Below are positions 2,162 through 32,828 of a stretch of DNA of 36,948 nucleotides, one piece after another. The number at the start of each line of letters is the position of its first letter. Positions within the stretch are counted from its first letter, which is position 1. A program made the translations under genes and the position numbers. The notes below the pieces were generated by a model. That model made no database searches, was not told the origin of the DNA, and saw nothing but the letters and a program-made list of their open reading frames with translations. The DNA is from a virus (lineage: Duplodnaviria; Heunggongvirae; Uroviricota; Caudoviricetes), in the IMG/VR virus record IMGVR_UViG_2778261353_000005. One strand, given 5' to 3'.

Positions 2162-2494
2162 TTATCCTTTTGGTTTAGTAAGAAATACTAAAATTCCGAT
2201 AATGATATCGCCAATAACCCATAAACTTCCAATGGTAATTAAACCTAAGCCTGTACCAATAACTGCACCGGCTTTTTCGGCATCGGATGTAGCATTATTT
2301 ATTATTTCACTAGTGCCTCCCAGTCCAACTAAAAGCGTATAGATCATAAAAATATTAAATAATATAAATATCCACTTAATGAGCTTTCCAAAAAATGAAC
2401 GCTTAAGTTTTTTTATTTGTTTACCGCAAGCAGGGCAATACAATGCTGAATCGCTCACCTCTTTCTGGCATTCAGGACATTTGATTAATGCCAT
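2162..2494 (-). CDS. Zinc-ribbon (CPxC...CPxCG) membrane protein, likely co-transcribed with 1264..2157
   Basis: 110-aa ORF; N-terminal CPECQ-x11-CPACG then hydrophobic helices; stop 4 nt before downstream gene start. Confidence 0.65.
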   Translation of the reverse strand: MALIKCPECQKEVSDSALYCPACGKQIKKLKRSFFGKLIKWIFILFNIFMIYTLLVGLGGTSEIINNATSDAEKAGAVIGTGLGLITIGSLWVIGDIIIGILVFLTKPKG

Positions 2495-2755
2495 GTAATC
2501 CGCCTCCTTTGGATCAATACGAGTTGATATTTGTTACAAAACATTTTGATTTTATCAGATTTTTTTTTATTGATAAGTGTCAATTGATTAGCTGGTATAG
2601 AGTGAGACATATAGAAGGGCAGATCTGTATCAGTAGTGATGCAAAAATCCCACAGTTTCATGGAATTTTTGCATTTAGAGCCGTGAGATAGGGTGCCTTA
2701 TCGACCTTACCCTGGCAACCGATTGACGGGGGATTACTCCCCCGTCGCGGTTTCC

Positions 2756-2896
2756 TTACTGCTTACACTGTAAGAACGCCGCAAACTCCGCTCCCCAGAA
2801 ACTCATCCGTATTTCGCACAGCGAACCGTGCAACATCCAGATGATGAGGATTACCGTCACGCAGAACGTGATGGCTGTAAGCGATTTTTGCGACAT
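2756..2896 (-). CDS. Hok/Gef-family type I toxin-like small membrane peptide (46 aa)
   Basis: Hand-translated (below ORF-track size cut-off): MSQKSLTAITFCVTVILIIWMLHGSLCEIRMSFWGAEFAAFLQCKQ; AAGGAG 8 nt upstream; TM helix then SLCEIR...AAFLxCK as in Hok proteins; GC hairpin at about 2725..2746. Confidence 0.55.
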   Translation of the reverse strand: MSQKSLTAITFCVTVILIIWMLHGSLCEIRMSFWGAEFAAFLQCKQ

Positions 2897-3086
2897 AGCA
2901 CTTGCTCCTTTTCCGGAGAGGCGCTAACCTTTCACTTGCTTAGGGTAGACGGTTAGGGCCTCGGTTAAACAAAAGTGTTTTCCGGGGCCTTTCCACATCT
3001 GGCCTTCGGGTATTCCCTCCGACCATCAGCCGAAAGGCACCCGCGCGTAATCTATCGCTTTTTTGTTACTCCGGCAATTCTGCTTG

Positions 3087-3347
3087 TTAATTCTGAGGTA
3101 AAGGCAAACTCATCTGATTGTTTCCCCTGTGTGAAGCTGGTAGCTCATGCCACGGGATACCTTCTGAAGAGTGAACGCCGGAGGCGTGTTTCGATGTGAA
3201 TTTATGGAAAGCTTCCAGTGTTGAGAAGCATACGCCGCATTCCAGATTGTTACACTGGTAATACTTTTGCCGCACGGTGTTTGAATCATTTTCCGGACGA
3301 CTTGTGCGGATACGGGCAGATGCGCCACAAAGCGGACAACGGAACAT
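3087..3347 (-). CDS. ogr: Ogr/Delta-family zinc-finger late transcription activator
   Basis: 86 aa; MFRCPLCG...YYQCNNLECG gives C-x2-C-x22-C-x4-C as in P2 Ogr. Confidence 0.85.
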   Translation of the reverse strand: MFRCPLCGASARIRTSRPENDSNTVRQKYYQCNNLECGVCFSTLEAFHKFTSKHASGVHSSEGIPWHELPASHRGNNQMSLPLPQN

Positions 3348-3538
3348 AGCGACCTCCCTTAACGTGGTGTTGCCGCTATTCTAGATTGTACGATCCCTAA
3401 TTCCAACTAACAGCTCGCTCTGTGCGAAGAGTGAAAATTGAACTTTCAATAGTTGTTGAACTTCCATACATCCAATGTGAAAATTCATACGTTCATAATA
3501 GTTAAAATTTAAAATATTGTATATCAGGTGAATAAAGC

Positions 3539-4561
3539 ATGGGAAGAGATATAACGCTGTACCCTAAAAAAGCAACTAGAAACGAACTTAAAAATTACCT
3601 TGAAAATTTAGGTTTTAAAAGGTGTAAACATTTGTGGGAATGGCCCCAAGGAACGTTGAATTACTCTTGGTTTGATGATACGGACTTCAAATCTACAGAT
3701 GGAGTTTCGGCTGATATATATCCTGTTTCAAATGACGAATTACACATATCTGGTAATAAATGGGCATTGCATGTGCGTAATTTATATAGCGCTAGTTGGC
3801 ATGATGTAAAAATGCTTAATGATGTTCTAAAAGGCGCAAGGAGTCTTTTTGGTGGAACACTTATAGGTGATTATGGGAAAAATAGGTACGCTCCTCTATG
3901 GAAGGATTCTAGTAGTCCGATCAGTCGTGGCATTTCTTCAATATTTAATCATGTCCATCATGAGATTTCCGCTGTTAAACATGCCTTACCTGAACCTTCT
4001 ATTAAATTAAACCTACCGGAAGATGGCGGTTTATCCGAATACTTTGATTACATGCAATGTATGGATCCCAGTAGAGTTATATATAATGGATTAGTACCTT
4101 TTGCGGTTGCTATGTTTGAATACTTTTTCTCTAGAGCTTTTCAAATACTTATAAAGTACGATCCTTTCGCAATAGCAAAAAGAACATCGTATAAGCAAAA
4201 AGTTGATTTTGATATTCTGCTTGAGATAGAGAAAGGAAATATTTCAATAGAAAGTGTTATTGCAAGAAATTACACTTTTCAAAACTTAACCCACCTAAAC
4301 AAAGCATATAAAGAGTGGCTGGATATAGATGTGAGAGCGATTCTTTATAAGAAAAAAAGAATTGGAAAATCAGTTGATTTTCTTGAGAATCGAATTTCTG
4401 AAATCATACAATATAGACATGGGATAGTTCATCACTTTGAGTTGGATAGGACCTTAAATCGGGATGGATATATTCATATATTAGATGCGATAGAAAAAAG
4501 CATAATTGAATTTATCCATTACATAGAAGGCAAATACAAATTTAAATTAAATGCGTATTAA
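3539..4561 (+). CDS. AT-rich accessory (moron) gene, function unknown; possible HEPN-like C-terminal Rx4H motif
   Basis: 340-aa ORF of clearly lower GC than flanks, opposite strand to D and ogr; C-terminal ...ENRISEIIQYRHGIVHH... Confidence 0.7.
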   Translation: MGRDITLYPKKATRNELKNYLENLGFKRCKHLWEWPQGTLNYSWFDDTDFKSTDGVSADIYPVSNDELHISGNKWALHVRNLYSASWHDVKMLNDVLKGARSLFGGTLIGDYGKNRYAPLWKDSSSPISRGISSIFNHVHHEISAVKHALPEPSIKLNLPEDGGLSEYFDYMQCMDPSRVIYNGLVPFAVAMFEYFFSRAFQILIKYDPFAIAKRTSYKQKVDFDILLEIEKGNISIESVIARNYTFQNLTHLNKAYKEWLDIDVRAILYKKKRIGKSVDFLENRISEIIQYRHGIVHHFELDRTLNRDGYIHILDAIEKSIIEFIHYIEGKYKFKLNAY

Positions 4562-4589
4562 GCAATCAACCTTACATAGGGATGACAAA

Positions 4590-4627
4590 GTCCGCTTCTG
4601 ACACGGAGCGGACCGTCGTTTATGTTT
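4590..4627 (+). terminator. Putative intrinsic terminator after the AT-rich gene
   Basis: gtccgc...gcggac stem followed by T-rich cgtcgtttatgttt. Confidence 0.4.
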
Positions 4628-4681
4628 AATTCTATACTGTAAACTTGCCAGTTTAAGTTTGAGCTAATATGTCTAAGTTGC

Positions 4682-5791
4682 TCACTCTGTTTCTGCTATC
4701 CATTCCGGGATTTTTGCCTCAAGCTCAAGCTGTGTGGTAAAGCCGCTGTTATCAATGGTGTGCTCGGCTTTCGCAATAATCCAGTCCTGATTATCAATCT
4801 CGCTTTTAAATCCTGTTACCGTGCCATGCATTTCGGGGTAGAGTTCTGCACGTCCACGCACCAGCGTGATGGAAAATAATGCGGCTCCGCGTTGTAGCTG
4901 CTGCCACTTTGCCGCCGCTGCGCGTCTTGCTGCCTGCTCGTTCTGATAAGTCTTGCGTAACACAAACACATTGCCTTCCGCGCCTTCCATATAATCACCT
5001 TCACGGCTGCTGCTTTTCTCCTTTTTGGGTTTTGGCGGTTTGCGGCGTTTCACGCTGACTTTTTTCTTTTTCCCGTAATTAAGATCAAGCCAGTAAGCGC
5101 GTACCCCCGTATACGCCTCGCGGTCAGCAATGCGGAACTGATGGCGATCGCCGCTGCTGCGTGTGATGGCGAACGATGGCAACGGCTGGCCCTGTGCGTT
5201 CACGCCACCGCCGGGCATGATGAATAACAGATTACCGCTTTTTACCGTGGTGATTGCGCCCAGCATTTCCGCCATGCGCGTAAGGAAGGACATGTCGCTT
5301 TCTTCAGTCTGGTCGGCGTGGTCGATTTCGATATCCATCAGCATTTCGCTGATTTGCGGTTTCAGGCTGTACCGATGAGCGATGGCGGATACCACACGTT
5401 CAACGGTCACATCATGCCAGGACGCCTCACGTTTAACATTAAATTCATCCCGAAAATCTGCGCTTCTGGCTGAAACAGTCAGCCTGTCCGGCGGTCCTTC
5501 GTGAGCGATTTCATCAACAATGTAAGTGCCTTTTTCTGTCAGCGGTTCCCCTTTCCAGCCAATGAGAACCGTCAGGCGCGCGCCCCGTGGCGGTAGCTGC
5601 AACTGACCATCCGCATCATCCAGCGTGATGGTGAGCTGGTCCGCTTCAAATCCCCGGTTGTCGGTCAGTGACAGGCTCATCAGGCGCTCTGCCACGCCTG
5701 ACAGCGTTTTACCCTCCGCGAGAATATCAAAATCCGGCATTTTCACGGGGTCTGTGCCCTGACTGAGCAATTGCATGGTGGTATCGGTCAT
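4682..5791 (-). CDS. D: Late control / tail protein D
   Basis: Start placed at MTDTTMQLL; the ORF-track N-terminal 44 aa are R/S/P/T-rich and look non-coding; family assignment by recollection of P2 gpD. Confidence 0.8.
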   Translation of the reverse strand: MTDTTMQLLSQGTDPVKMPDFDILAEGKTLSGVAERLMSLSLTDNRGFEADQLTITLDDADGQLQLPPRGARLTVLIGWKGEPLTEKGTYIVDEIAHEGPPDRLTVSARSADFRDEFNVKREASWHDVTVERVVSAIAHRYSLKPQISEMLMDIEIDHADQTEESDMSFLTRMAEMLGAITTVKSGNLLFIMPGGGVNAQGQPLPSFAITRSSGDRHQFRIADREAYTGVRAYWLDLNYGKKKKVSVKRRKPPKPKKEKSSSREGDYMEGAEGNVFVLRKTYQNEQAARRAAAAKWQQLQRGAALFSITLVRGRAELYPEMHGTVTGFKSEIDNQDWIIAKAEHTIDNSGFTTQLELEAKIPEWIAETE

Positions 5792-5948
5792 CTGTTCCCT
5801 CCCTGTGCGGCATGGTCGCATGTGCGTGCGGAGGGGGTTACTGCTTTTTGTTGTCGCCGTGGCGGGAGAACGGCGCAGGGGTGAGATTACGCGCGTGGTG
5901 GGTGATGATTGTTGCCGAATCATTTAACGGATACAAGGGGCTGAAGCT

Positions 5949-7133
5949 ATGAGTGAAACTCGTTTTCATGGTGCCCGTGTTACGGAAAATACCGACCTGG
6001 TAACAGCGATTAACGATGTTGATTCCAGCGTTATCGGTATCGTGGCAACGGCGGATGATGCGGACGCGAAGCTGTTCCCGCTGAACAAGCCCACACTGCT
6101 GACCCGCGTCAATGACGTGCTGGGAAAATGCGGGACAACGGGGACGCTTTATCGTGCGCTTAAGGCCATCGCAGACCAGGTGAGCACAAAGGTGATCGTC
6201 GTTCGCGTGGCTGAACACAAAGAAGAAGACGGAAAGACGCAGGATCAACTGGTTATCGGTGGTTCTGAGGATGACGGCAGCTATACGGGGATGTATGCGC
6301 TGCTTGTTGCAGAGCAGGATGAAAGCATCGGATACCGTCCGCGTATTCTGGCCGCGCCGGAGCTGGACACGGAGGCTGTAACAAAATCCCTGTGCGTGAT
6401 TGCAGGTAAACTGCGCGCGTTTGTGTATGCCTCATGTCACGGCTGTAACACGATGGCTGAGGCGATTACCTACCGCCAGAAATTCAACGAACGTGAGGTG
6501 ATGCTCTTATGGCCGGACTTCATCGCCTACAACCCGAAAAGTGGCAAAAACGAAACGTTCCCCGCGTCTGCCTATGCGTGCGGCCTTCGTGCGTACATTG
6601 ACCATGAGCAGGGATGGCACAAATCACTGTCCAACGTTCCGGTTAAAAATGTGCTGGGGATGTCGAGGCATGTGTTCTGGTCGTTGCAGGCCGAAGACAG
6701 CGATGCCAACAGCCTCAACAACAAAGAAATCACGACCATTATTCGTCGCAACGGGTTCCGCTTCTGGGGCAACCGCACACCGGAAACGAACGCCTACATC
6801 TTTGAGGTGTATACCCGAACCGCACAGGTGCTGGCTGATTCAATTGCGGAAGCGCAGTTTGAAACCATCGACAGTCCACTGACGCCTGCGAACGTGAAGG
6901 ATGTTATCAGTGCCATCAGGGCAAAACTGGATTCACTGGTGACTGCCGGGAAACTGATTGGCGCGTCGTGCTGGTATGACGTGGTGGATAACAGCACCAC
7001 GGATTTACGTCAGGGGCGTGTGCGTATTCGCTACAAATATACGCCAGTTCCTCCGCTGGAAGATATGGAGCTTTACCAGACGTTTACTGATGAATACTTT
7101 GATCCCGCATTTGCGGTGCTGGGAGGTGTCTGA
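5949..7133 (+). CDS. FI: Contractile tail sheath protein
   Basis: 394 aa; conserved blocks FPLNKP, LRAF, WPDF, DHEQGWHK, IRRNGFRFWGNRT, YTPVPPLE as in P2 FI. Confidence 0.9.
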   Translation: MSETRFHGARVTENTDLVTAINDVDSSVIGIVATADDADAKLFPLNKPTLLTRVNDVLGKCGTTGTLYRALKAIADQVSTKVIVVRVAEHKEEDGKTQDQLVIGGSEDDGSYTGMYALLVAEQDESIGYRPRILAAPELDTEAVTKSLCVIAGKLRAFVYASCHGCNTMAEAITYRQKFNEREVMLLWPDFIAYNPKSGKNETFPASAYACGLRAYIDHEQGWHKSLSNVPVKNVLGMSRHVFWSLQAEDSDANSLNNKEITTIIRRNGFRFWGNRTPETNAYIFEVYTRTAQVLADSIAEAQFETIDSPLTPANVKDVISAIRAKLDSLVTAGKLIGASCWYDVVDNSTTDLRQGRVRIRYKYTPVPPLEDMELYQTFTDEYFDPAFAVLGGV

Positions 7134-7645
7134 TGGCTGTACCAAAACATCTTCGCTTTTTTACGCTGTTTGTGAATGGTGAAAACGAAGTGGGTAAGGT
7201 GACGTCCGTCACTCCACCTAAACTGACGCGCAAAACTGAAAGCTATCGTGGCGGTGGCATGATGGGGGCGGTGAGTATCGACCTCGGTCTTGACGACTCC
7301 GCGCTTGATGCGAGTTTTGTCATGGGGGGCGCAGTTCGTGAGCTGTTCCTTAAATATGGCGGCACGATTGACGGCACGTTGCTGCGTTTTGCGGGTGAAT
7401 ACTACACTGATGCAGAAAGCGATCTGTATGAAATCGAGATGCGCGGGCGTGTGACGGAAATTGATATGGGGGAAGCCAAACAGGGCGAAGCCACATCACA
7501 CACTTATGCTGTCAAAAACACCTACTACAAGCTGAGCGTTAACGATCGTCCGCTGTGGGAAATCGACCTGCTGAACCACATCTACCGGAAGGACGGCAAG
7601 GACATCGTGCCTGATCGCATCCGTTCCGCGCTTGGGCTTGGCTGA
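7133..7645 (+). CDS. FII: Tail tube protein
   Basis: 170 aa; ATG overlaps FI stop; position and size as P2 FII. Confidence 0.85.
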   Translation: MAVPKHLRFFTLFVNGENEVGKVTSVTPPKLTRKTESYRGGGMMGAVSIDLGLDDSALDASFVMGGAVRELFLKYGGTIDGTLLRFAGEYYTDAESDLYEIEMRGRVTEIDMGEAKQGEATSHTYAVKNTYYKLSVNDRPLWEIDLLNHIYRKDGKDIVPDRIRSALGLG

Positions 7646-7701
7646 TAAGTAATATGCAGGCGGCGCAGTGCGTCGCCTCTGACTGAAAAAGGAGACAACT
7701 G

Positions 7702-8076
7702 ATGCAAAACATCAATACTGAAACCCAGAATAACGCCGTGGCGGATGATGTGACGGCAGGTGAGGATATGGCTGTCGAACGTGGCGTAAAACTGGCCCGA
7801 CCAATTGAGCGCGGTGGCGAAAAAATCACGTATGTGGAAATTACCGGGGCTATTGAGCAGGCTGGATCTCTGCGTGGTCTGTCGCTTTCTGATGTGCTGA
7901 ATCTGAAAGCGGATACCATGTTCACGCTGTTGCCTCGCGTGACCTCGCCACGACTGGATGAAGTGATGATTAAAAAAATGTCGTCACGCGATTTTATTCA
8001 GTTGTGCGCTGTGGCTGTAAATTTTATGAGCGAGCCAGACTCTGGCGCGAAGAGCGTGCAGGAGACGGCAGCGTAA
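7702..8076 (+). CDS. E: Tail assembly chaperone E
   Basis: AGGAG 7 nt upstream of ATG; SLRGLSLSDVL...LLPRVTSP resembles P2 gpE. Confidence 0.8.
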   Translation: MQNINTETQNNAVADDVTAGEDMAVERGVKLARPIERGGEKITYVEITGAIEQAGSLRGLSLSDVLNLKADTMFTLLPRVTSPRLDEVMIKKMSSRDFIQLCAVAVNFMSEPDSGAKSVQETAA

Positions 8077-8240
8077 TCACCCTGGTGTGCTTTGAGCACA
8101 TCGAAGATCTGGTGGCGGATATTGCCGCCATTTTTAACTGGTCGCCCGCCGAAATCTTCATGATGACGCCCGGCGAAGTGGTTAGCTGGCGTGAGCGGGC
8201 GGCACTTCGCAGCGGGAATGCAGACAATGAAGACTCTTGA
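7702..8240 (+). CDS. E': E+E' fusion by programmed -1 ribosomal frameshift
   Basis: -1 frame ORF (8004..8240) overlaps the E 3' end; slippery heptamer A_AAT_TTT at 8019..8025 in the E zero frame. Confidence 0.7.
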
Positions 8241-11034
8241 TATCCGGGTCGCTTTCAGCGCCGTTGACAGACTGACCCGGCCTGCCGAAAACGCCCGCCG
8301 CCTGATGGGGCAGTTTGGTGACTCCATCCAGCGAACGCAGGGGGCGATCAAAAATCTCGAGCGTCAGGCGCGTTCATTTGAGCGCGCCCGTGACGCTGTC
8401 AGTAAAGCGGATGCGGGCATCGTGAAAGCACGACGCCAGCTTAACGCCCTTAATCAGTTACAACGCACGGGTACAGTGCTCAGCGAAAAACAACAAAAGC
8501 TGATGCAGCAGTTAAGCACCCGGCTTGAACGCCTGAATGAATCGCGCACACGGGAAATTCAGAAAATGCGGGAGCTTGGCGGAGAGCTGAAACGCCACGG
8601 CATTTCCCTGACAGGCAGCGATAACACCATCCAGCAGGCCATCAGACGCACCGAACAGTACAACAACCAGCTTGAACGCGAACGGCAGACGCTTGCGCGT
8701 GTAACGCGGGCGCGTGAGCGGTATTCGCGAGCGCAGGAAACTGCTGGAAAACTGAAAACAGGTGGTGCGCTGGCAATTGGTGCGGCAGCGGCTGGCGGCT
8801 ATGCTGCCGGGCGTTTTTTGCAGCCTGCGATCGGGTTCGGGAAAGAGATGTCCCGCGTTCAGGCACTGACGCGAATCGACCAGAACAGCCCACAGTTTAA
8901 GGCGCTGCGTGAGCAGGCGTTAAAACTTGGCTCTGAAACGCAGTTCACCGCAGGTGATGCCGCCAGTGGACAGGCATTTCTTGCAATGGCTGGCTTCACA
9001 CCACAGGCCATTCAGGCTGCGCTCCCTGGCGTACTGAGCATGGCAACGGCTGGCGGTATGGACCTCGGTGAGACGGCGGATATTGGCTCAAATATTCTGA
9101 CGCAGTTCGGTCTTTCTGCTGACCAGATGGACCGGGTCGGCGACACACTCACCGCAGCGTTTACCCGTACCAACACTGACCTTCGCGCACTGGGTGAAAC
9201 CATGAAATATGCAGGTCCGGTGGCGGGTAAGCTGGGAATATCGCTGGAGCAGGCCGCAGCGATGGCAGGCGTGCTGGCGAATATGGGTATCAGGGGGAGT
9301 GATGCCGGGACGGCAATGCGTGCCAGCCTGGCTCGTCTGGCATCACCGCCAAAGGCGGCAGCAGAGGCGCTGAAAGAGCTGGGCGTGTCTGTCTCGGATG
9401 CCGGGGGCAAAATGCGCCCGATGGAGGATGTGCTGGCCGACCTTTATAAAGCCACCCGCAAATACGGGGAAGTTGACCGGGTATCGTTCTTTAAGGACAT
9501 TGCCGGAGAAGAGGCTTTCACATCGTTTATGGCGCTCGTTGATGCAGCGGGTGACGGTTCCTTACCCAAACTGAGAAAAGAACTTGAAGGCGCGCGCGGT
9601 GAGGCTGAACGCACAGCAAAGGTTATGGCCAACAACCTTGACGGCGATCTGAAATCACTCGGCAGTGCATGGGAAGGGTTGCGCATCCGCATTGCAGATC
9701 TGATTGACGGTCCGCTGCGTTCTGTCACGCAGTGGCTCACGCGAGTGGTCTCAAAGGTGACGGCGCTGGCGCAGGCCCATCCCGCACTGACGCGCCAGCT
9801 ACTGATAGCAGGCGGTGCGTTGCTGGCAATGACTGCAACGGTTGGCTCGTTGTCGCTGGCTATTGGTGTGCTTGCTGGCCCGCTGGCAAAACTGCGTCTT
9901 GGTTTTTCTCTCCTGACCGGATCAATGAATGCTGTCAGGGTCCTGCCAGCACTATGGGGAATGGTGACGGGTTCCGTTTCTTTACTGGGAGGCGCTATCG
10001 GGGCGCTGTTCAGTCCGGTCGGGTTGATTGCTGCAGCGTTTGTCGCTGCGGCGGTTCTCATCTGGAAATACTGGGAACCCATCAAGGCGTTTTATGCCGG
10101 GGTGTTCAGTGGGATTATGGAGCGACTGGCCCCGTTGCGCGAAACCTTTGAACGGTTTGGCCCTGTTTTTGACGCAATCGGAAGCGGGATCAGCCAGGTG
10201 TTTAACTGGTTTAAATCGCTGCTGTCACCAATGGAGTCCAGCAAGGAAACGCTGGATAAATGTACCAGTGCTGGCGAGATATTCGGTAACGTTCTTGGCG
10301 GTGCGTTACAGCTTGTTCTGACACCTGCAAAAATGCTACTGGATACGCTGGCGTGGATACTTGAAAAACTTGGCGTCCTTCCGGATGAAGCGGAAAAGGC
10401 GCGCAAGAAAATCGAAGACGCACAGCGTGCGGCCATTCTTCAGGACAAGGTTGCCTTGCTTCAGGGGGACCTTGCGAAAATCAATCCGCCGAAGCCTGTG
10501 GAAAATGGCAATGGCACCGGAGGTGATAAACCCAAAGACAACAAACCGCTCACAGACAGCAATACCGGTACGCTACGCAGACTCAGCAAAATTGCTGATA
10601 ACACAGGTAAGCTGGTTGATGAGACGAAAAAACGCATTGGCCCCGGCGATATTGTCTTTAAGAACCTGCCCCGCGCACTTGCTGTTCGTGGGGAGTGGCA
10701 GGAGCGGAAGATTGCGCAGGTCAGTAAGCCTGCTTCCGCAATCAACATCACACCCGTGGTCCCGACTCCTCTGCCTCCGGCGCTGGTCCCTGTTGTTGCG
10801 GCCAGCTCCCGCCCGGTGGCGGAGGCCATACGATCGCCAGTGGCATCAGTTCCTGCAGCTTCCCGTAATCGGGAGCCTGCTGTCTCCGGATTTGGCGGTG
10901 AAATTCATGTTCATCTGCATAACGTTGTTACGCAGAATCCCCGCGAACTGGCGAAACTGGTCGGTGAAATGGTCAGGGCAGAGATGGAACGGCGCGCCCG
11001 TGCCGGACGTGGCAGTTTTTACGATAAAGATTGA
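8218..11034 (+). CDS. T: Tail tape measure protein
   Basis: About 938 aa from first in-frame ATG (MQTMKTL); coiled-coil N-terminal half, Gly/Ala-rich hydrophobic middle; sits between E' and U. Confidence 0.9.
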   Translation: MQTMKTLDIRVAFSAVDRLTRPAENARRLMGQFGDSIQRTQGAIKNLERQARSFERARDAVSKADAGIVKARRQLNALNQLQRTGTVLSEKQQKLMQQLSTRLERLNESRTREIQKMRELGGELKRHGISLTGSDNTIQQAIRRTEQYNNQLERERQTLARVTRARERYSRAQETAGKLKTGGALAIGAAAAGGYAAGRFLQPAIGFGKEMSRVQALTRIDQNSPQFKALREQALKLGSETQFTAGDAASGQAFLAMAGFTPQAIQAALPGVLSMATAGGMDLGETADIGSNILTQFGLSADQMDRVGDTLTAAFTRTNTDLRALGETMKYAGPVAGKLGISLEQAAAMAGVLANMGIRGSDAGTAMRASLARLASPPKAAAEALKELGVSVSDAGGKMRPMEDVLADLYKATRKYGEVDRVSFFKDIAGEEAFTSFMALVDAAGDGSLPKLRKELEGARGEAERTAKVMANNLDGDLKSLGSAWEGLRIRIADLIDGPLRSVTQWLTRVVSKVTALAQAHPALTRQLLIAGGALLAMTATVGSLSLAIGVLAGPLAKLRLGFSLLTGSMNAVRVLPALWGMVTGSVSLLGGAIGALFSPVGLIAAAFVAAAVLIWKYWEPIKAFYAGVFSGIMERLAPLRETFERFGPVFDAIGSGISQVFNWFKSLLSPMESSKETLDKCTSAGEIFGNVLGGALQLVLTPAKMLLDTLAWILEKLGVLPDEAEKARKKIEDAQRAAILQDKVALLQGDLAKINPPKPVENGNGTGGDKPKDNKPLTDSNTGTLRRLSKIADNTGKLVDETKKRIGPGDIVFKNLPRALAVRGEWQERKIAQVSKPASAINITPVVPTPLPPALVPVVAASSRPVAEAIRSPVASVPAASRNREPAVSGFGGEIHVHLHNVVTQNPRELAKLVGEMVRAEMERRARAGRGSFYDKD

Positions 11035-11040
11035 GGAGTC

Positions 11041-11535
11041 ATGGTCATGATGATGATCTACGGCATGTTTGTTTTTGAGCTGCGCACACTGCCGCATCAG
11101 CAGTTACAGCAAAACAAAAGCTGGCGGCATGTGAAAAATGAACGCGTTAACCGTTCAGCAAGCTGGCAGTATATCGGTGCAGGTGATGATCGCATCGTGC
11201 TTTCCGGCGTGCTTTATCCTGAAATTACAGGTGGTGAAGTGTCGCTTTCGTTACTGACCACGCAGGCATATACAGGACGCCCCTGGCCTCTGATTGATGG
11301 TGTCGGGCAGATTTACGGCATGTATGTGCTGACTGAAACGAATACGACCCGTTCCGAGTTTGATCGCTACGGTAAGGCGAAAAAGATAGAATTTTCACTG
11401 ACTCTTGAACGCTGTGATGAGGATTTGCGGGAGCGCCTGCAATCCTCATCATTCAGCGATATGCTGTCCGGCTTCAAAGATAAGGTGACATCATCTCTTA
11501 ACAGCGCGGCCAGTTCAGTTAAAGGGCTGTTCTGA
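11041..11535 (+). CDS. U: Tail protein U
   Basis: 164 aa; ...QQLQQNKSWRHVKNERVNRSASWQYIGAGDD... matches P2 gpU. Confidence 0.85.
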   Translation: MVMMMIYGMFVFELRTLPHQQLQQNKSWRHVKNERVNRSASWQYIGAGDDRIVLSGVLYPEITGGEVSLSLLTTQAYTGRPWPLIDGVGQIYGMYVLTETNTTRSEFDRYGKAKKIEFSLTLERCDEDLRERLQSSSFSDMLSGFKDKVTSSLNSAASSVKGLF

Positions 11536-11546
11536 TTTAACACAAA

Positions 11547-11572
11547 AACCGCTAATGGTCAGATTAGCGGTT
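11547..11572. terminator. Bidirectional intrinsic terminator between convergent U and invertase genes
   Basis: aaccgctaat-ggtcag-attagcggtt hairpin with T-rich flank on both strands. Confidence 0.55.
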
Positions 11573-12158
11573 ATTTTGTTTCCTGACTCTTCTCAATTGT
11601 TCCGCTTGATTCTCCTGCGAGGTGGTAACGATAAATCGTCGATATACCAATGCCGTAAATTATTGCCAGTTGTTTTCTGTCGTGCCCGTTTTTGATCAGC
11701 CTTGCTATTTGCTCATGCTGTTCTTTTGTCAGCTTCGGGCGACGTCCGCCTGTGCGCCCCCGTGCGCGCGCTGCCGCCAGTCCGGCCAGTGTGCGTTCAA
11801 CAATTAATTCACGTTCCATTTCTGCTAAAGCTCCCATGACGTGAAAAAAGAAACGCCCCATGGGTGTTGATGTGTCAATGCTGTCCGTCAGGCTACGGAA
11901 ATTAACACCTTTTTCCCGCAATTCCTCAATAAGCGTGATCAGGTGTTTCATACTCCTGCCCAGCCTGTCCAGCTTCCAGACAACCAGCGTATCTCCTTCT
12001 GATAGCGTTCTGAGCAGTTTTTTCAATCCCGGTCTGGCTGATTTCGTTCCGCTGATTTTATCTTCAAAAATCAGTTCACATCCTGCGCACTCCAGCGCGT
12101 TACGCTGCAATTCCGTGTTCTGGTCATTTGTTGATACGCGAACATAACCAATAAGCAT
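11571..12158 (-). CDS. Serine DNA invertase (Gin/Pin/Cin/Hin family)
   Basis: Near-identity to Gin-type invertases over the catalytic N-terminus (MLIGYVRVSTNDQ..., VWKLDRLGRSMKHL, MGRFFFHVMGALAEMERELI) and C-terminal HTH. Confidence 0.9.
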   Translation of the reverse strand: MLIGYVRVSTNDQNTELQRNALECAGCELIFEDKISGTKSARPGLKKLLRTLSEGDTLVVWKLDRLGRSMKHLITLIEELREKGVNFRSLTDSIDTSTPMGRFFFHVMGALAEMERELIVERTLAGLAAARARGRTGGRRPKLTKEQHEQIARLIKNGHDRKQLAIIYGIGISTIYRYHLAGESSGTIEKSQETK

Positions 12159-12214
12159 GAGCATCCCCCTGAATAAAAACCGGAGATGATGCCAGTTACC
12201 CGTTATCTCTGCAT

Positions 12215-12240
12215 TTTCACAAATGTTGGTTTAGGAGAAG
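12215..12240. repeat. Invertase crossover site (gix/cix-like), left boundary of invertible fibre segment
   Basis: ttggtttaggagaag at 12226..12240 is the reverse complement of cttctcctaaaccaa at 14108..14122; AAACC..GGTTT-type core. Confidence 0.7.
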
Positions 12241-12731
12241 GCTCAGCATTGCCTGTTGGCGTACCTGTTCCGTGGCCCTCAGCCACTCCGCCAACAGGCT
12301 GGCTGAAATGCAACGGAGCAGCTTTTTCTGCTGAAGAATACCCGGAACTGGCAAAGGCTTACCCGACAAATAAATTGCCTGATTTACGCGGTGAATTTAT
12401 TCGCGGCTGGGATGACGGGCGTGGGGTTGATTCGGGCCGAACTATATTGAACTCTCAGGGAGATGCAATCAGAAATATCACGGGGACAATTGGTGCAAGG
12501 CATGAAATATCAGCACTGTATTTTTTTGGCAATGGCTCTGGTGCATTTTTTGGGAATGATGAGGGAATGTATGATTCCGTTGTGATAAAAGCTGAATCTA
12601 CAGGTAAGTCATCAGTTTCTATGACAGATCGTCATATTTACGCTAATTTGGATGTCTCAAGAGTTGTTCCTACAGCGACAGAAAACAGACCTCGTAATAT
12701 TGCATTCAACTACATCGTGAGGGCGGCATAA
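12232..12731 (+). CDS. Alternative (currently silent) tail-fibre C-terminal segment, expressed only after inversion
   Basis: No credible independent start; frame runs through the crossover site encoding GLGE, the same tetrapeptide at the crossover in H; fibre-tip-like sequence. Confidence 0.65.
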
Positions 12732-13348
12732 TGCGCGAGGATACCATGAATACAGTCACACTGAATGAGGCCCTACTGGCGACTGTCGCGGGTGAAGTCG
12801 TCATATACAACTACGACAGCAAGACGCGGGAATATCTTTCCACATCAACTGAATATCTTGCGGTTGGCGTCGGCATCCCGGCATGTTCTTGTTTAGATGC
12901 ACCAGTTACACATAAAGCTGGTTATGCAATCTGCCGTTCTGCAGATTTTAACTCATGGGAATATGTGCCAGACCATCGCGGTGAAATCATCTATAGCACC
13001 GAAACAGGAGAATCGAAAGAAATCACAGCTCTGGGTGATTACCCTGAAAATACAACCACTATCGCCCCGTTAACGCCATATGATAAATGGGATGGTGAGA
13101 AATGGGTGACGAATACTGAGGCACAGCATAGCGCCGCAGTAGAAGCGGCAGAAGCACAGCGCCAGTCACTGATTGATGCAGCAATGGCTTCCATCAGTCT
13201 GATTCAACTGAAATTACAGGCCGGACGGAAGCTGACGCAGGCAGAAAACACCCGTCTAAACGCTGTGCTGGATTACATTGATGCGGTGACGGCAACAGAT
13301 ACCAGAACCGCGCCGGATGTCATCTGGCCTGAACTGCCGGAGGCGTAG
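12731..13348 (+). CDS. Tail fibre assembly protein (alternative copy inside invertible segment)
   Basis: 205 aa; ATG overlaps preceding stop (TAATG); C-terminal DYIDAVTATDT...PDVIWPELP parallels the convergent tfa copy. Confidence 0.75.
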   Translation: MREDTMNTVTLNEALLATVAGEVVIYNYDSKTREYLSTSTEYLAVGVGIPACSCLDAPVTHKAGYAICRSADFNSWEYVPDHRGEIIYSTETGESKEITALGDYPENTTTIAPLTPYDKWDGEKWVTNTEAQHSAAVEAAEAQRQSLIDAAMASISLIQLKLQAGRKLTQAENTRLNAVLDYIDAVTATDTRTAPDVIWPELPEA

Positions 13349-13760
13349 GCCATTCAATATCTGGCGCACCGGAAGTATCGACCAGTTCTAGTGCGTCCAG
13401 ATAATCCAGCCACAAATTATATTGCGCCAGTTCCTCACCTTTCAGGCGACCAATCGCCGCTTTACCAGGCCATTGCTTACTGTTTATGTATTCGTTGACC
13501 TGATTAATCAATTGCTGCTTTTCCAATTCGGCTGCGGCAATTTGTTCCTCATGAGTTGGCGGTGGAATATCAATCCATGCAGGCATTCCGTCGATGACAC
13601 CTCTGTATTTTCCTTCTGGTGCTTCCTTCATAAATTCGGCAGCAACAGTGTCGTCAATTTCGATTCCATCACCGGGCCATTCGCCGGATTCCTGATAAGC
13701 GATTTTAAGCTCCACAGGGAAAAACGCATTTTTATCAGCACTGAAAATATATTTCTGCAT
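13320..13760 (-). CDS. G: Tail fibre assembly protein (active orientation)
   Basis: 146 aa directly downstream of H; C-terminal LDYLDALELVDTSGAPDIEWP motif. Confidence 0.8.
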   Translation of the reverse strand: MQKYIFSADKNAFFPVELKIAYQESGEWPGDGIEIDDTVAAEFMKEAPEGKYRGVIDGMPAWIDIPPPTHEEQIAAAELEKQQLINQVNEYINSKQWPGKAAIGRLKGEELAQYNLWLDYLDALELVDTSGAPDIEWPTPPAVQAR

Positions 13761-13762
13761 TT

Positions 13763-15253
13763 CTACCGTCCTATCGAAACATAACTGAATCTGTATTGCT
13801 GTGAGATATCACTGGTTGCCACACGCCACGCTGAATTACTGATATGTTCAAAATTTACAGACAAAACCTGCGGGGCAGGATTCGACGGGTCTGACTGAAC
13901 GGCATCAGACATAACACTGACTGAAACCATCGGCTGATTAGGGAATGGTATAGGGAAGTGTCCACTGATAAAGCGGGTCGTGTTTCCTGAAAAAGTGCCA
14001 AACTGAACAATATATCCACCTGGTAGCCTGAACCATCCCGAACCAGAAGCGAATGCTCCCATATCCGGTATCTGATTATCTCCTGTGCCCACATCCCTTT
14101 TCGCCGCTTCTCCTAAACCAAGGTAATCAAGAACGCCCTGAGTGCTGGTTTTACCAAGAATGGCACGTCCAACACTTGTCAACGCGGTTAACGCGGCACG
14201 ATCTGCCCCTGTAAAATATGGGAGTTTATCTGCTGATGTAGCAAGCTCCGCCAGCGCCGTCAGGGTGGCATCCTTCGGTTGCTTACCCGCAAGCGCGTTA
14301 GTCATGGTGGTCGCAAAATTCGGGTCATTGCCCAGCGCCGCAGCCAGTTCGTTCAGCGTGTTCAGTGCATCAGGTGACGAATCTACAAGTGCGGCAATCG
14401 CGGCCATAACGAAAGCCGTGCTTGCGATCTGGGTACTATTAGTCCCCTGTGGCGCTGTTGGTGTTGTTGGCGTTCCGGTCAGTGCCGGGCTGTTTAATGG
14501 TGCTTTCTTGTTCGTTTCATCCATTACCGCCTTAACAGCTTTTGGTGTCGCTGCCAATGTTTCAGACGTGCTGTTCGTGGCGCTACTGAGCTGAACAATC
14601 CCTTTTTGTGTAGTGGTGGCGTTCTGGGCAGTATATTTCTCGTTAGCCAGGTCATATGCAGCCTTAACCGCTTTCGGTGTTGCGGCCAGTGTTTCTGATT
14701 CACTGTTAATTGCACTGCTTAACTGAGTAAAACCTTTTACGGTCAGCGAGGCGTCCGGGTGACGTCGTGACTGTTCGTGCTCTGATATTTTATCATCCAC
14801 ATATTTGCGGGTTGCCAGAACCACAGACGGGTCGATTTTCAGCGTGATGGCTTCGGTGTTCGTGACAACCAGAATCATGCGGATAGTCTGGGTGCGTCCA
14901 CTGCCTTCCTGCAACTGCGGTTTGTACGTTTCCGGGCAGTTTGCCACCGCAATGAGTACACCTTCATCATCATAAAGACCAATCTCACGGATCCAGAATC
15001 CTCCCTCGTTTTCAGGGATGATTTGCTCCGCAATAATCTGGCTCTGATTGTTAGGGTCAACACTCAGAAGATTCAGCGGTGCAATGCGTTTCTGGTTAAT
15101 CAGTTTTGTTTGTGCAGGGTCTGGTGTTGGTAACACACCATTTGCATCACCAACGGCCATTTGCGTCAGATTCAGCTTACTGCCGAGCATCGTCGCGTTA
15201 GCCAGTCGTGCCGCGCCCTGATTAGTCAGAATGGCGTAGTATTTCACTGTCAT
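13763..15253 (-). CDS. H: Tail fibre protein H (constant N-terminus plus currently joined variable C-terminus)
   Basis: N-terminal blocks MAVGD, GFW-RE-GLYDD-G-LIAVAN, YVDDKI-EHEQSRRHPDASLT-KGFTQLSSA, ETLAATPKAVKAAYDLA match P2 gpH. Confidence 0.85.
   Translation of the reverse strand: MTVKYYAILTNQGAARLANATMLGSKLNLTQMAVGDANGVLPTPDPAQTKLINQKRIAPLNLLSVDPNNQSQIIAEQIIPENEGGFWIREIGLYDDEGVLIAVANCPETYKPQLQEGSGRTQTIRMILVVTNTEAITLKIDPSVVLATRKYVDDKISEHEQSRRHPDASLTVKGFTQLSSAINSESETLAATPKAVKAAYDLANEKYTAQNATTTQKGIVQLSSATNSTSETLAATPKAVKAVMDETNKKAPLNSPALTGTPTTPTAPQGTNSTQIASTAFVMAAIAALVDSSPDALNTLNELAAALGNDPNFATTMTNALAGKQPKDATLTALAELATSADKLPYFTGADRAALTALTSVGRAILGKTSTQGVLDYLGLGEAAKRDVGTGDNQIPDMGAFASGSGWFRLPGGYIVQFGTFSGNTTRFISGHFPIPFPNQPMVSVSVMSDAVQSDPSNPAPQVLSVNFEHISNSAWRVATSDISQQYRFSYVSIGR
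14108..14133. repeat. Invertase crossover site, right boundary, inside H
   Basis: Inverted copy of the 12226..12240 site; encodes GLGE in the H frame. Confidence 0.7.
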
Positions 15254-23583: not shown

Positions 23584-23737
23584 AGTTTTTGCCCCTCTGA
23601 CTGGTTCTTCAGTCATGATGGCAAAGCGTAACAGGCTGATACAAAGGGCTTTTGTTGTAAGAAAACGGCCAGAACAGGGGGTTAAGGAGAACAGTTTCGC
23701 GCGCGGGTAATCTTCCTGTAATTACTCAGGGGGAGCA

Positions 23738-25489
23738 ATGATTCAGGACGCTTTTGTGCGCCAGCGTGCGCGGCAACTTTACTGGCAGGGTTATCCGCCC
23801 GCAGAAATATCACGTCTGATGGGAATAAACCCGAACACGATTTATGCGTGGAAAAAACGCGACCAGTGGGATGAAACGCCACCCGTGCAGCGTGTCACGC
23901 AGTCCATCGATGCGCGCCTCATCCAGCTCACTGAAAAACAGAATAAAACAGGTGGTGACTTCAAGGAAATAGACCTGCTGACCCGGCAGCTTAAAAAACT
24001 GCATGATGGCCAGCCGGATGCGACGGCCACAGGAAAGAAAGGCCGGGCGAAAAAACTCAAAAATCATTTCACGCCGGAACAGATTGCCGCACTGCGGGAA
24101 AAAATCATCAGCAGGCTGGAGTGGCATCAGCGGGGCTGGTTTGACTCCCTGACCCTTTGCAGGGAAGCCGGGATACGTAACAGGATGATCCTGAAATCCC
24201 GACAGATTGGGGCGACCTGGTATTTTGCACAGGAAGCACTGCTGATGGCGCTGCGTGACGATGTGGCACAACCTTACCAGCGTAACCAGATTTTTTTGTC
24301 TGCGTCGCGTCGTCAGGCGTTCCAGTTTAAAAGCATTATTCAGAAGGCCGCGGCTGAAGTTGATGTGGAGCTGAAAGGGGGCGATAAAATCATCCTCTCC
24401 AACGGCGCAGAGCTGCATTTTCTCGGCACTTCTGCTGCGTCGGCACAGTCCTATACGGGCAATTTTTATTTTGATGAATTTTTCTGGGTCAGTCGCTTTG
24501 CTGAACTGCGCAAGGTGGCTGGCGCTATGGCAACCCTCAGCGGACTGCGGCGCACCTACTTCTCCACGCCATCCACCGAAACGCACGAGGCATACGTCTA
24601 TTGGAACGGCGACCGCTGGAACGAGAAAAAGGCCGCGCATAAACGCCAGCGTTTTTCTGTGGACTGGAAAACGCTGCATAACGGGCTTATCTGCCCCGAC
24701 CGGACGTGGCGGCAAATTGTCACGCTGGAAGATGTGGTTAATCACGGCTGGAAACACACCGATATTGATGAAATTCGTGATGAAAACACCGAAGACGAGT
24801 TCCGCAATCTCTATATGTGTGAGTTTGTCCGCGAAGGGGAATCGGCATTTAACCTGAATATCCTGATTGGCTGCGGTGTTGATGGATACGACGACTGGAA
24901 AGACTGGAAACCTTTTGCTCCCCGCCCGATGGGGAATCGTCCGGTATGGATTGGGTATGACGCAAACGGCAGCAGTGGCAACGGCGACAGCGGCGCTGTG
25001 TCCGTGGTGGTTCCTCCGGCTGTTCCTGGTGGCCGTTTTCGAACGGTGGAGACGCGACGCGTTCAGGGGCTGGAGTTTGAAGAACAGGCCAGAGTCATTG
25101 AAGAGTTCACGTATCGCTACAACGTGGAACACATCGGCATTGATGTGACGGGCGGGAACGGGGAGGCTGTTTATCAGATAGTGAAACGGTTTTTCCCTGC
25201 AGCTATTCCGTACACCTTCACCCTGTCATCAAAACGGTCGCTGGTACTGAAAATGCTGCAAATAATGCGTGCCGGGCGGTGGGAATACGATCGCGCCGAA
25301 CGCGAGCTGGTCGCGGCCTTTAACGCCGTGCGTAAGGTGAAAACACCGGGCGGCTTTATCACTTACGAAACGGACCGTGCGAGGGGGATCAGCCACGGCG
25401 ACCTTGCGTGGGCAACCATGCTTGCTGTCATTAACGAACCGATTGGCGGCGAAGGAGAAAACGAGCGTTTCACGGTTATGGAGTTCTGA
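23738..25489 (+). CDS. P: Terminase large (ATPase) subunit P
   Basis: 583 aa divergent from O; N-terminal HTH-like region then ATPase/nuclease-size body. Confidence 0.85.
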   Translation: MIQDAFVRQRARQLYWQGYPPAEISRLMGINPNTIYAWKKRDQWDETPPVQRVTQSIDARLIQLTEKQNKTGGDFKEIDLLTRQLKKLHDGQPDATATGKKGRAKKLKNHFTPEQIAALREKIISRLEWHQRGWFDSLTLCREAGIRNRMILKSRQIGATWYFAQEALLMALRDDVAQPYQRNQIFLSASRRQAFQFKSIIQKAAAEVDVELKGGDKIILSNGAELHFLGTSAASAQSYTGNFYFDEFFWVSRFAELRKVAGAMATLSGLRRTYFSTPSTETHEAYVYWNGDRWNEKKAAHKRQRFSVDWKTLHNGLICPDRTWRQIVTLEDVVNHGWKHTDIDEIRDENTEDEFRNLYMCEFVREGESAFNLNILIGCGVDGYDDWKDWKPFAPRPMGNRPVWIGYDANGSSGNGDSGAVSVVVPPAVPGGRFRTVETRRVQGLEFEEQARVIEEFTYRYNVEHIGIDVTGGNGEAVYQIVKRFFPAAIPYTFTLSSKRSLVLKMLQIMRAGRWEYDRAERELVAAFNAVRKVKTPGGFITYETDRARGISHGDLAWATMLAVINEPIGGEGENERFTVMEF

Positions 25490-26535
25490 TGAGCAGAAAA
25501 AATAAAAAATTGCGCATGAGTTCACGCATTGATCTCGCTGATGCGCTCAGGAAAGAATCGTCGCTCAGTGCATTCACATTTGATGGTCCTTACCGCCTGA
25601 CCGGGCATGACCTGCTGGACAATATGTACTGTGCTGATAACGGTCGGTGGTATGAAACCCCGGTGGACTGGTACGGTCTGGCAAGAGCTGCCCGGCAAAC
25701 GTCCTGGCATCAGTCTGCGCTTTACTTTAAGCGCAATGTATTACTCGGTTGCTACATCCCGCACCCGCTGCTTTCCCGGCAGGATTTCTCGGCGCTGGCG
25801 CTGGACTGGTTTGTGTTCGGTAACGCATTTCTTGAGCTTCGAAGCAATATGCTCGGCGAACCGCTTAAATTACGGCACGCACTGGCGAAATACATGCGAC
25901 GCGGAAGCGATCTTGAATCATGGTGGTATGTGCAGGATGGCAAGGACGCGTTTCGGTTTCGCCCTGGCAAAGTGTGCCACCTGATGAATCCGGACATTAA
26001 CCAGGAAATTTACGGCATGCCGGAATATCTCGGCGCATTACTCTCGGCCAGCCTGTCTCATTCGGCGGACATGTTCAGAAAACTGTATTACGACAATGGA
26101 TCCCACGCCGGGTGCATCATCTACATCGGTGCAGCGCAGGTGAACCGCGAAAGCATGGACTCCCTGAAAGAAACGTTACAGGGTGCGCGTGGTGGTGGTG
26201 CGTTTAAAAACGTGCTCATCCATGCGCCCAACGGGGGCAAAGAGGGGGTGCAAATTTTGCCGTTCCAGCAGATCACCGCAAAGGATGAGTTCATGAATGT
26301 TAAGGCGGCATCCCGTGATGATGTGCTGGCTGCGCACCGCGTTCCGCCGCAACTGATGGGGGCGATGCCGGGTGAAAAAAGTGCGTTTGGTGATGTGGAG
26401 AAGGCCGCGCGGGTTTACGCAATTAACGAGCTGATGCCCGTCATGGAGGCCATGAAGCACATCAATGACTGGCTTGGCGAAGAGGTGATCCGCTTTAACC
26501 CTTACGCACTGTTAGACACCCAGCCCACATCCTGA
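25489..26535 (+). CDS. Q: Portal protein Q
   Basis: 348 aa immediately after P, start overlapping P stop. Confidence 0.85.
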   Translation: MSRKNKKLRMSSRIDLADALRKESSLSAFTFDGPYRLTGHDLLDNMYCADNGRWYETPVDWYGLARAARQTSWHQSALYFKRNVLLGCYIPHPLLSRQDFSALALDWFVFGNAFLELRSNMLGEPLKLRHALAKYMRRGSDLESWWYVQDGKDAFRFRPGKVCHLMNPDINQEIYGMPEYLGALLSASLSHSADMFRKLYYDNGSHAGCIIYIGAAQVNRESMDSLKETLQGARGGGAFKNVLIHAPNGGKEGVQILPFQQITAKDEFMNVKAASRDDVLAAHRVPPQLMGAMPGEKSAFGDVEKAARVYAINELMPVMEAMKHINDWLGEEVIRFNPYALLDTQPTS

Positions 26536-27656: not shown

Positions 27657-27968
27657 TTACTCAGGAAATAACGCCCGGATATTCCCAGCCATCTGGCTGG
27701 TTATCTTAGCCACTGGTGCAGACTGTGCTTCAAACTTTTTTGAGCTGATTTGTGTCACAGGTAACATCTCATCATCAGCCCATGCGGCCAGTCGGTAAGC
27801 CTCTGCCGGATTCGTCTTCAGAAGTGCCAGCCCGGCCAGAAAAGCCACGCGTTGGCCGCTTTTGCGGGCTTCTGGTGTAAGGCTGTCCAGCCAGGCGCAT
27901 GCTTCTCCTTCGTTCTTGACGGCAGCTGGCTTCAGATAGAAACTTATCCGTCTGGTTGGTGTTGTCAT
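27657..27968 (-). CDS. parR: ParR-like centromere-binding protein
   Basis: Start 5 nt after parM stop with AAGGAG SD; RRISFYLKP...LDSLTPE...AFLAGLAL resembles plasmid R1 ParR. Confidence 0.7.
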   Translation of the reverse strand: MTTPTRRISFYLKPAAVKNEGEACAWLDSLTPEARKSGQRVAFLAGLALLKTNPAEAYRLAAWADDEMLPVTQISSKKFEAQSAPVAKITSQMAGNIRALFPE

Positions 27969-27972
27969 TGGT

Positions 27973-32506: not shown

Positions 32507-32685
32507 GGTGTGGCCCCTTGTGTAGTAAGTTGTGAAAACTCACCATCCAGAGCTGCGAAACTGTGGGTGGCGAGACGTACGAGGTTCGCAGTACCGGCTA
32601 CACAAGAACCCGGCCCGACCGAAGTCGGCCCCGTACGCCCCGCCATAATTCTGACGCGAAAAAAACGTGGCAATACAGTACGCAC

Positions 32686-32706
32686 AAAAAAACCGCTGGC
32701 GCGGTT
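32686..32706 (-). terminator. Possible intrinsic terminator/attenuator inside the early-operon noncoding island
   Basis: Minus strand aaccgc-gcca-gcggtt hairpin followed by TTTTTTT. Confidence 0.35.
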
Positions 32707-32828
32707 GTGCGCTTGTGTAGTCAGCAGGCTGCGAAACCCGGCACCCGTTTTGTGAGGTGCAGCGGAAATGTAACCTGACTGATTGCGGCATGGCAAGCGG
32801 TTTTTTTGTGTGTGCATGTTCTGGTTTC

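Follow-up and report, generated by a model that had tools for sequence, protein, structure and literature searches.

The reversed tail-shaft operon of a P88-type P2-like prophage is a lineage-wide gene order

The DNA examined in this study, IMG/VR record IMGVR_UViG_2778261353_000005 (36,948 nucleotides, hereafter the window), consists almost wholly of a P2-family prophage, reversed with respect to the P2 map, in which the tail-shaft genes FI through U lie on the strand opposite to that of their neighbors. A tblastn comparison with every P2 protein identified homologues of Q, P, O, N, M, L, X, R, S, V, W, J, I, H, FI, FII, E, T, U, D, ogr, int, C, cox, and A. In particular, int, C, cox, and A occupy the right end, P and Q are found at 23738 to 26535 on the plus strand, and the genes O-N-M-L-X-R-S-V-W-J-I-H are arranged on the minus strand, extending down to 13763.

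The reversed block begins with the tail sheath gene FI (5949 to 7133, plus strand; 394 amino acids), recognized by Pfam sheath domains and by 46% identity to P2 FI. It is followed on the same strand by the tail tube gene FII (7133 to 7645; 170 amino acids; Pfam Phage_tube, 7e-46; 44% identity to P2 FII), by the tail assembly chaperone gene E (7702 to 8076; a weak match to Pfam Phage_TAC_7; 35% identity to P2 E), and by the E' frameshift extension frame (8004 to 8240), which corresponds to the separate E' coding sequence (CDS) annotated in P88 and PhiR44_2. The tape measure gene T (8227 to 11034, plus strand; 935 amino acids; Pfam PhageMin_Tail, 4e-58; 33% identity to P2 T) most likely starts at the ATG at 8227 and not at the GTG at 8191 that opens the frame, judging from the match with the P88 CDS. 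The last gene of the operon encodes the tail protein gpU (11041 to 11535, plus strand; 164 amino acids; Pfam Phage_P2_GpU, 6e-39; 46% identity to P2 U).

On the left of the block, the gene for gpD, the baseplate hub or "late control D" protein (4682 to 5791, minus strand; 369 amino acids; Pfam Phage_GPD; 48 to 52% identity to P2 gpD), diverges from FI across a putative control region of 157 bp (5792 to 5948); an alignment of 48 related spacers shows conserved blocks in it. The start of D is the ATG at 5791, preceded by a GGGAGGG ribosome-binding site, and the gene has the same length in the phiSM and PhiR44_2 annotations. A longer frame of 413 amino acids (4682 to 5923) was discarded as an overextension, since the strong ribosome-binding site places the start at 5791. 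On the same strand as D and downstream of it, beyond an inserted plus-strand gene, is an ogr-type late activator gene (3087 to 3347, minus strand; 86 amino acids; Pfam Ogr_Delta, 5e-14; 41.5% identity to P2 Ogr over 53 amino acids by tblastn), so that the element encodes a cognate Ogr/Delta zinc finger activator. On the right of the block, the stop codon of U (11535) faces that of a Gin/Hin/Pin-type serine DNA invertase gene, here called gin (11571 to 12164, minus strand; 197 amino acids; Pfam Resolvase, 7e-52, and HTH_7, 2e-12), with 35 bp between them, and a two-way hairpin resembling an intrinsic terminator (11547 to 11572) is indicated there by terminator scan hits on both strands and by an inverted repeat.

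Thus, H, G, gin, D, and ogr, together with I, J, W, and V, are encoded on the minus strand and FI-FII-E/E'-T-U on the plus strand. In P2, according to its own annotated order, FI-FII-E-E'-T-U-D is codirectional with V-W-J-I-H-G. A first-pass annotation of the window had pointed to this difference, and the Pfam and tblastn assignments confirmed the opposite strand of FI through U with respect to H/G and D, as well as the divergence of D and FI and the convergence of U on the invertase gene. It had also described an inversion of about 6.3 kb: the flip relative to P2 stands, but the unit measures about 5.8 kb (5792 to about 11570), the span of 6.4 kb taking in gin. Compared with the P2 F operon, transcribed from the late promoter PF, the window retains the seven products (33 to 48% identity), their internal order, and an Ogr-type site about 83 to 88 nucleotides before FI; in P2, however, the operon follows H-G codirectionally and includes D, whereas in the window FI-U is flipped and D is a divergent unit of its own. 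The tail-shaft proteins and D share 33 to 48% identity with those of P2, and most other virion proteins share 26 to 60% (72% for the N terminus of H); since the block and the other virion genes have diverged from P2 to a similar extent, the block is to be considered a native module and not a foreign one.

The same arrangement is present in isolated phages. The region from 4600 to 12300 (7.7 kb) matches P88, P884B11, and phiSM as one colinear piece, with 97% coverage and 94 to 96% identity, and it is covered to 90% in PhiR44_2 and Chuche. For P88, the identity is 94.3% over 97% of the 7.7-kb query, a value referring to this query, the genus criterion of the International Committee on Taxonomy of Viruses (ICTV) being whole-genome identity. 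On the identity over the 7.7 kb tested, the window is assigned to the P88-type (Xuanwuvirus-like) prophages of the P2 family. In the annotation tables of P88, phiSM, and PhiR44_2, the order and strands of the genes are identical to those of the window. The group formed by P88 (Xuanwuvirus) together with P884B11, phiSM, PhiR44_2, and Chuche shares with the window D on the minus strand, FI-FII-E-E'-T-U on the plus strand, an invertase gene on the minus strand, and an invertible fiber cassette, with the difference that both PhiR44_2 and Chuche are devoid of the invertase. P88 is inducible with mitomycin C and forms plaques; its burst size is about 65, and its virions have been imaged by electron microscopy (PMC5285337). 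phiSM, released spontaneously by Citrobacter rodentium, has been described as resembling P88 and as being temperate and fully functional (PMC6456863). Since these infective phages carry the identical order, the flipped order is compatible with function.

The order is also widespread and fixed in Escherichia coli, where the junction between D and FI was detected in 1,109 of 5,426 complete genomes and at least 80% of the region from 4600 to 12300 was colinear in 1,104 of them; P88-type prophages thus reside in about a fifth of the complete genomes of this species. The reciprocal arrangement was searched for with a chimeric query in which the 5' end of D abuts the 3' end of U, as in the P2 order. 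Both halves were present in 1,423 E. coli genomes, and none of these had the junction intact, which indicates that the FI-U block does not switch orientation. The junction between U and gin was found in only 620 E. coli genomes, versus the 1,109 with the D-FI junction.

These counts bear on the possibility, raised by the first-pass annotation, that the block was misoriented during contig building. Such an artifact is conceivable for any inversion, and nothing specific to this locus speaks for it, whereas more than 1,100 complete genomes, assembled independently, show the same junctions, as do several phages sequenced from virions, and no repeats capable of misleading an assembler are present at the junctions. 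We therefore regard the probability of an assembly artifact as practically nil.

The proximity of the invertase gene to one end of the block had suggested a notable rearrangement of this particular prophage, possibly with a connection to the invertase or an effect on viability. The gene is 80 to 89% identical at the nucleotide level to invertase genes of many phages, and its 5' end is directed toward an invertible tail fiber cassette of 1.9 kb (12216 to 14131), defined by inverted gix-like sites, a perfect inverted repeat of 15 nucleotides, and Pfam Collar and Caudo_TAP matches. The two sites, at 12216 to 12239 (minus strand) and 14108 to 14131 (plus strand), are inverted and both contain TTCTCCTAAACCAA. 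Between them, genes for an alternative fiber C terminus and its assembly lie on the plus strand (12186 to 12731 and 12731 to 13348; Pfam Collar and Caudo_TAP), and G (13320 to 13760) and the C terminus of H are encoded on the minus strand, as recognized by Pfam; in the tblastn comparison, the identity to P2 H ends at 14096, where the right-hand gix-like site falls. This organization recalls the Mu G segment with Gin, the P1 C segment with Cin, Pin of e14, and Hin of Salmonella, with which it shares a serine invertase gene beside an invertible cassette, alternative tail fiber C termini with assembly genes, and inverted sites of 24 to 26 bp with an AAACC core; the likeness, however, covers only 12216 to 14131, a segment that neither bounds nor moves FI-U.

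In the scan of the window for gix sites, carried out with the full 24-nucleotide site and its 14-nucleotide core and allowing up to 3 mismatches, 5 matches were obtained against 2.75 expected, namely, the two sites around the fiber cassette and three chance-level matches elsewhere. No site within 3 mismatches of the 14-nucleotide core was found near 5792 to 5948 or 11536 to 11570, so that the earlier statement about the lack of gix-like sites at the block ends holds, and no inverted repeats pair the block ends, the only pairs being imperfect ones of 17 to 25 nucleotides at chance level, none of which joins the two junctions. Serine invertases can occasionally use pseudosites, and the block end lies 35 bp from the invertase gene; a recent inversion of this prophage by the adjacent Gin-type enzyme on cryptic sites, leaving the element defective or able to switch orientation, could be imagined on these grounds. 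It is contradicted by the identical order in plaque-forming phages and in 1,109 E. coli genomes, with the opposite orientation in none, by the absence of gix cores and flanking inverted repeats just described, and by the same order in relatives without an invertase: PhiR44_2, phiT5282H, 3LV2017, and SEN5 all carry the flipped block with no invertase beside U. A recent invertase-mediated event thus appears very improbable, and, on the position of the sites, the invertase is predicted to flip only the fiber cassette at 12216 to 14131, unrelated to the orientation of FI-U.

The distribution of the flipped order extends well beyond the Xuanwuvirus group. We scanned bacterial genomes for gpD, taking one genome per species and typing each locus by tblastn, and, among the best 80 matches, all 48 species-representative loci with a D at least 61% identical to that of the window were flipped, whereas all scorable loci with a D at most 54% identical presented the P2 order. 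The hosts of the flipped loci belong to Salmonella, Trabulsiella, Edwardsiella, Symbiopectobacterium, Serratia, Erwinia, Citrobacter, Enterobacter, Pantoea, Kosakonia, Pectobacterium, Brenneria, Klebsiella, Xenorhabdus, Photorhabdus, Providencia, Rouxiella, Hafnia, Yersinia, and Morganella, and altogether prophages with this order were found in more than 20 genera of Enterobacterales, usually without the invertase. Three further Peduoviridae genera are flipped, represented by Novemvirus phiT5282H, Reginaelenavirus 3LV2017, and Senquatrovirus SEN5. These phages, together with SEN4, share with the window the flipped FI-U and the divergent D, which is 63 to 76% identical; they differ in that a fiber assembly gene converges directly on U, with no invertase there, and they belong to other genera, with other early regions. 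The orientation is thus shared by the functional phages P88 and phiSM and by phages of three other ICTV genera, and the flipped tail-shaft operon is an ordinary lineage-wide gene order and not an anomaly.

The P2 order was found in Felsduovirus SopEPhi and in the distant Pseudomonas phage phiCTX. SopEPhi and other canonical P2-like phages bearing an invertase resemble the window in the succession of H-G, an invertase (or its remnant), and the tail-shaft genes, with D-ogr at the end of the prophage; in SopEPhi, FI-U-D follows the invertase codirectionally, whereas FI-U is reversed in the window. Since SopEPhi and phiCTX are canonical, the flipped order is to be considered the derived state. The D, FI, and U proteins of 85 loci, clustered by the unweighted pair group method with arithmetic mean (UPGMA) on p-distances, split exactly by arrangement, with 52 flipped and 33 canonical loci, and the simplest reading of this pattern would be a single old inversion that has become fixed, the flipped lineage being nested within the canonical ones. 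The baseplate and fiber-proximal proteins J and I do not follow this split, some pairs of flipped and canonical loci being only 8% apart in I, and the comparison of the protein distances shows a recent exchange of this baseplate/fiber module between flipped and canonical lineages, with FI-U-D being lineage specific. At the breakpoints, the protein-level comparison displayed U C termini loosely similar in both groups, and the output for the D N terminus was mostly upstream read-through.

An old module exchange, by which an FI-U(-D) cassette of another P2-like lineage was installed in reverse, has to be weighed at this point, together with the converse polarity, in which the flipped order would be ancestral and the P2 order derived. 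P2-like genomes are mosaic, as the behavior of J and I illustrates, and D, FI, and U act as one coinherited module, both of which are compatible with an exchange. On the other hand, the divergence from P2 is even over the block and the other virion genes, D has kept its ancestral position and strand, and the geometry of PF is preserved exactly (see below); as for the converse polarity, phiCTX and SopEPhi have the P2 order, and a single flip with the P2 order as the older state is the most economical account. We thus consider these alternatives rather unlikely.

The spacer between D and FI (5792 to 5948) contains one Ogr/Delta-type dyad, TGTCGCCGTGGCGGGAGA, of the form TGT-N12-AGA (5852 to 5869, centered at 5860.5), predicted by motif scan and conservation and set in the extended motif TTTTGTTGT-N12-AGAAC, which also occurs in the P/O region of the window (23656 to 23673). 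The dyad was detected by a scan allowing one mismatch and by phylogenetic footprinting; with the strict pattern TGT-N12-ACA, no site was found in any late-promoter region of the window, and the annotated sites of P2 fail the strict pattern too. In the alignment of the 48 spacers, the dyad is conserved, as are a CGCGCG block and, to either side, −10-like hexamers, which in the window are GATGAT (5904 to 5909) on the FI side and GACCAT (5817 to 5812, minus strand) on the D side. Counting by hand, the starts predicted from both hexamers would fall about 55 nucleotides from the dyad center.

The position of the dyad relative to FI is similar across the two arrangements. In nearly all of the 46 flipped relatives with a predicted site, TGT-N12-A(C/G)A lies 80 to 88 nucleotides from the FI ATG and about 67 to 80 nucleotides from the predicted D start. 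In most canonical relatives with the dyad, SopEPhi included, it lies 79 to 86 nucleotides upstream of FI, and the annotated PF activator site of P2 is centered 83 nucleotides upstream of the FI ATG. This agreement among flipped relatives, canonical relatives, and P2 argues that PF moved with the block. Furthermore, the flip prevents D from being read from PF through U, and any antisense read-through from H-G-gin would be stopped by the 5.6 kb of opposing genes and the hairpin at 11547 to 11572; D therefore needs a promoter within 5792 to 5948. A precedent is offered by the PP/PO pair of P2, in which the two mapped start sites are 56 and 55 nucleotides away from one shared annotated activator site, comparable to the distance of about 55 nucleotides on both sides in the window; the P2 pair was mapped experimentally and drives P and O, whereas the D/FI case is deduced from sequence and conservation.

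On the whole, we find it highly probable that the window carries a P88-type prophage in which the flipped FI-U is a fixed, inherited order produced by one old in-place inversion, with the invertase unrelated and the dyad putatively shared by FI and D. It is possible to hypothesize that a single ancient inversion of about 5.8 kb took place in a subclade of the Peduoviridae infecting Enterobacterales, with one break between U and D and the other upstream of the late promoter PF, which would have been carried along with the block, so that the Ogr-binding dyad would now be located midway between FI and D. One dyad would then serve two back-to-back late promoters, as in the PP/PO pair of P2, and FI-U and D would be separate Ogr-activated transcription units, with the two-way terminator insulating U from gin. 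As for the regulatory consequence taken by itself, namely, that the old inversion split the F operon in two and made a second PP/PO-like bidirectional late promoter sharing the dyad at 5852 to 5869, we lean toward it, if only slightly.

Several points weigh against this interpretation. As to the history, the gpD sample was confined to the best matches, the clustering was by UPGMA on p-distances rather than by a rooted likelihood tree, the outgroup consisted of one distant phage (phiCTX), and a single in-place inversion and an old reversed reinsertion of the cassette cannot be strictly separated. As to the promoters, the dyad of the window departs from the consensus by one mismatch (AGA for ACA), and the D-side promoter, its −10 hexamer, and its dependence on Ogr are proposed from motif position and conservation. 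Moreover, the divergent P/O region of the window spans 121 bp, with the dyad center (23664.5) only about 48 nucleotides from the first ATG of O (23616), and the rule of 55 nucleotides both ways would not fit this region unless either O starts further downstream or PO is arranged differently from that of P2.

It follows that the gene order of P2 is not universal in the Peduoviridae and that in P88-type prophages and several sister genera the tail-shaft operon is normally flipped, with D divergent from it. This order should thus not be flagged in annotations as a rearrangement, a defect, or the product of an invertase, and the orientation can be used as a synteny marker dividing the P2-like phages of Enterobacterales into two lineages. 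The flipped order can be plainly seen in GenBank and RefSeq entries for phages belonging to at least four ICTV genera and is not new biology. In the literature searched on Xuanwuvirus, P88, phiSM, P2-like diversity, and xenorhabdicin or other tailocins, we found no paper remarking on it and none describing a shared Ogr dyad promoter of D and FI for P88-type phages; the proposed shared late promoter may be the only part that is perhaps undescribed. A Xenorhabdus paper reports a variable region flanked by the sheath gene and the N-terminal part of the fiber gene; we considered this locus as a possible description of the flipped arrangement and rejected it, the position of the variable region being taken as that of a canonical-type locus. 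The interpretation predicts that D has its own Ogr-dependent promoter using the PF activator site, and, if this is true, the rearrangement would be an example of one tolerated owing to the reuse of a symmetric activator site in both directions.

Some irregularities were noticed in the records and reports on related elements. In the GenBank entry of Citrobacter phage Shae_phiSM (OR565851.1), the product names are shifted at 2294 to 4745, so that "late control gene D protein" appears on the sheath gene and "ogr/Delta-like zinc finger family protein" on the gpD homologue. The 2019 report on phiSM classifies the phage as a siphovirus by transmission electron microscopy, yet its genome encodes a sheath. 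A prophage gpD 97% identical to that of the window was found in a 226-kb contig assigned to the Gram-positive "Vagococcus sp. WN89Y" (NZ_JBQPOM010000071.1), which is most likely a contaminated or mislabeled enterobacterial assembly. Several P88-type prophages, in E. coli genomes and in phages 520873 and 503458, carry insertion sequence (IS) elements (IS100/IS21 family, IS30, and IS1203) in the sheath/tape measure block, and, given these insertions, a fraction of such prophages is likely defective.

Outside the tail genes, the window carries several cargo genes, none of which had a PADLOC match. The inserted plus-strand gene between D and ogr (3539 to 4561; 340 amino acids) has a low G+C content (about 38 to 41%), is accompanied by a terminator-like hairpin at 4590 to 4613, and encodes a product with a subthreshold match to the Pfam HEPN RiboL-PSP domain (22.5 bits versus a cutoff of 28.4); the lack of a PADLOC match includes this gene. 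It has no counterpart in PhiR44_2, where ogr directly follows D, and P88 has a hok-like gene in this area; the interval between D and ogr looks like a variable cargo or defense hotspot. Near the prophage end, on the minus strand, a gene for a protein with a VasI domain (type VI secretion associated; 1264 to 2157) is adjacent to one for a small zinc ribbon protein (2162 to 2494) that is annotated as TagO in phiSM, and both genes are shared, with the same sizes and positions, by phiSM and PhiR44_2. A ParM/StbA actin-like ATPase (E value, 2e-82) and a Plasmid_stab_B protein are encoded at 27657 to 28932 (minus strand), with the portal gene on one side and the replication gene A on the other; an integrating P2-like prophage does not usually carry such a plasmid-type partition pair as cargo. 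Finally, the early region contains two adjacent Rfam matches at gathering level, a C4 antisense RNA (32563 to 32650, minus strand; 83 bits) and the Hfq-binding small RNA isrK (32686 to 32760, minus strand; 64 bits), a pair that suggests a P1/P7-style module of antisense immunity or antirepressor control.

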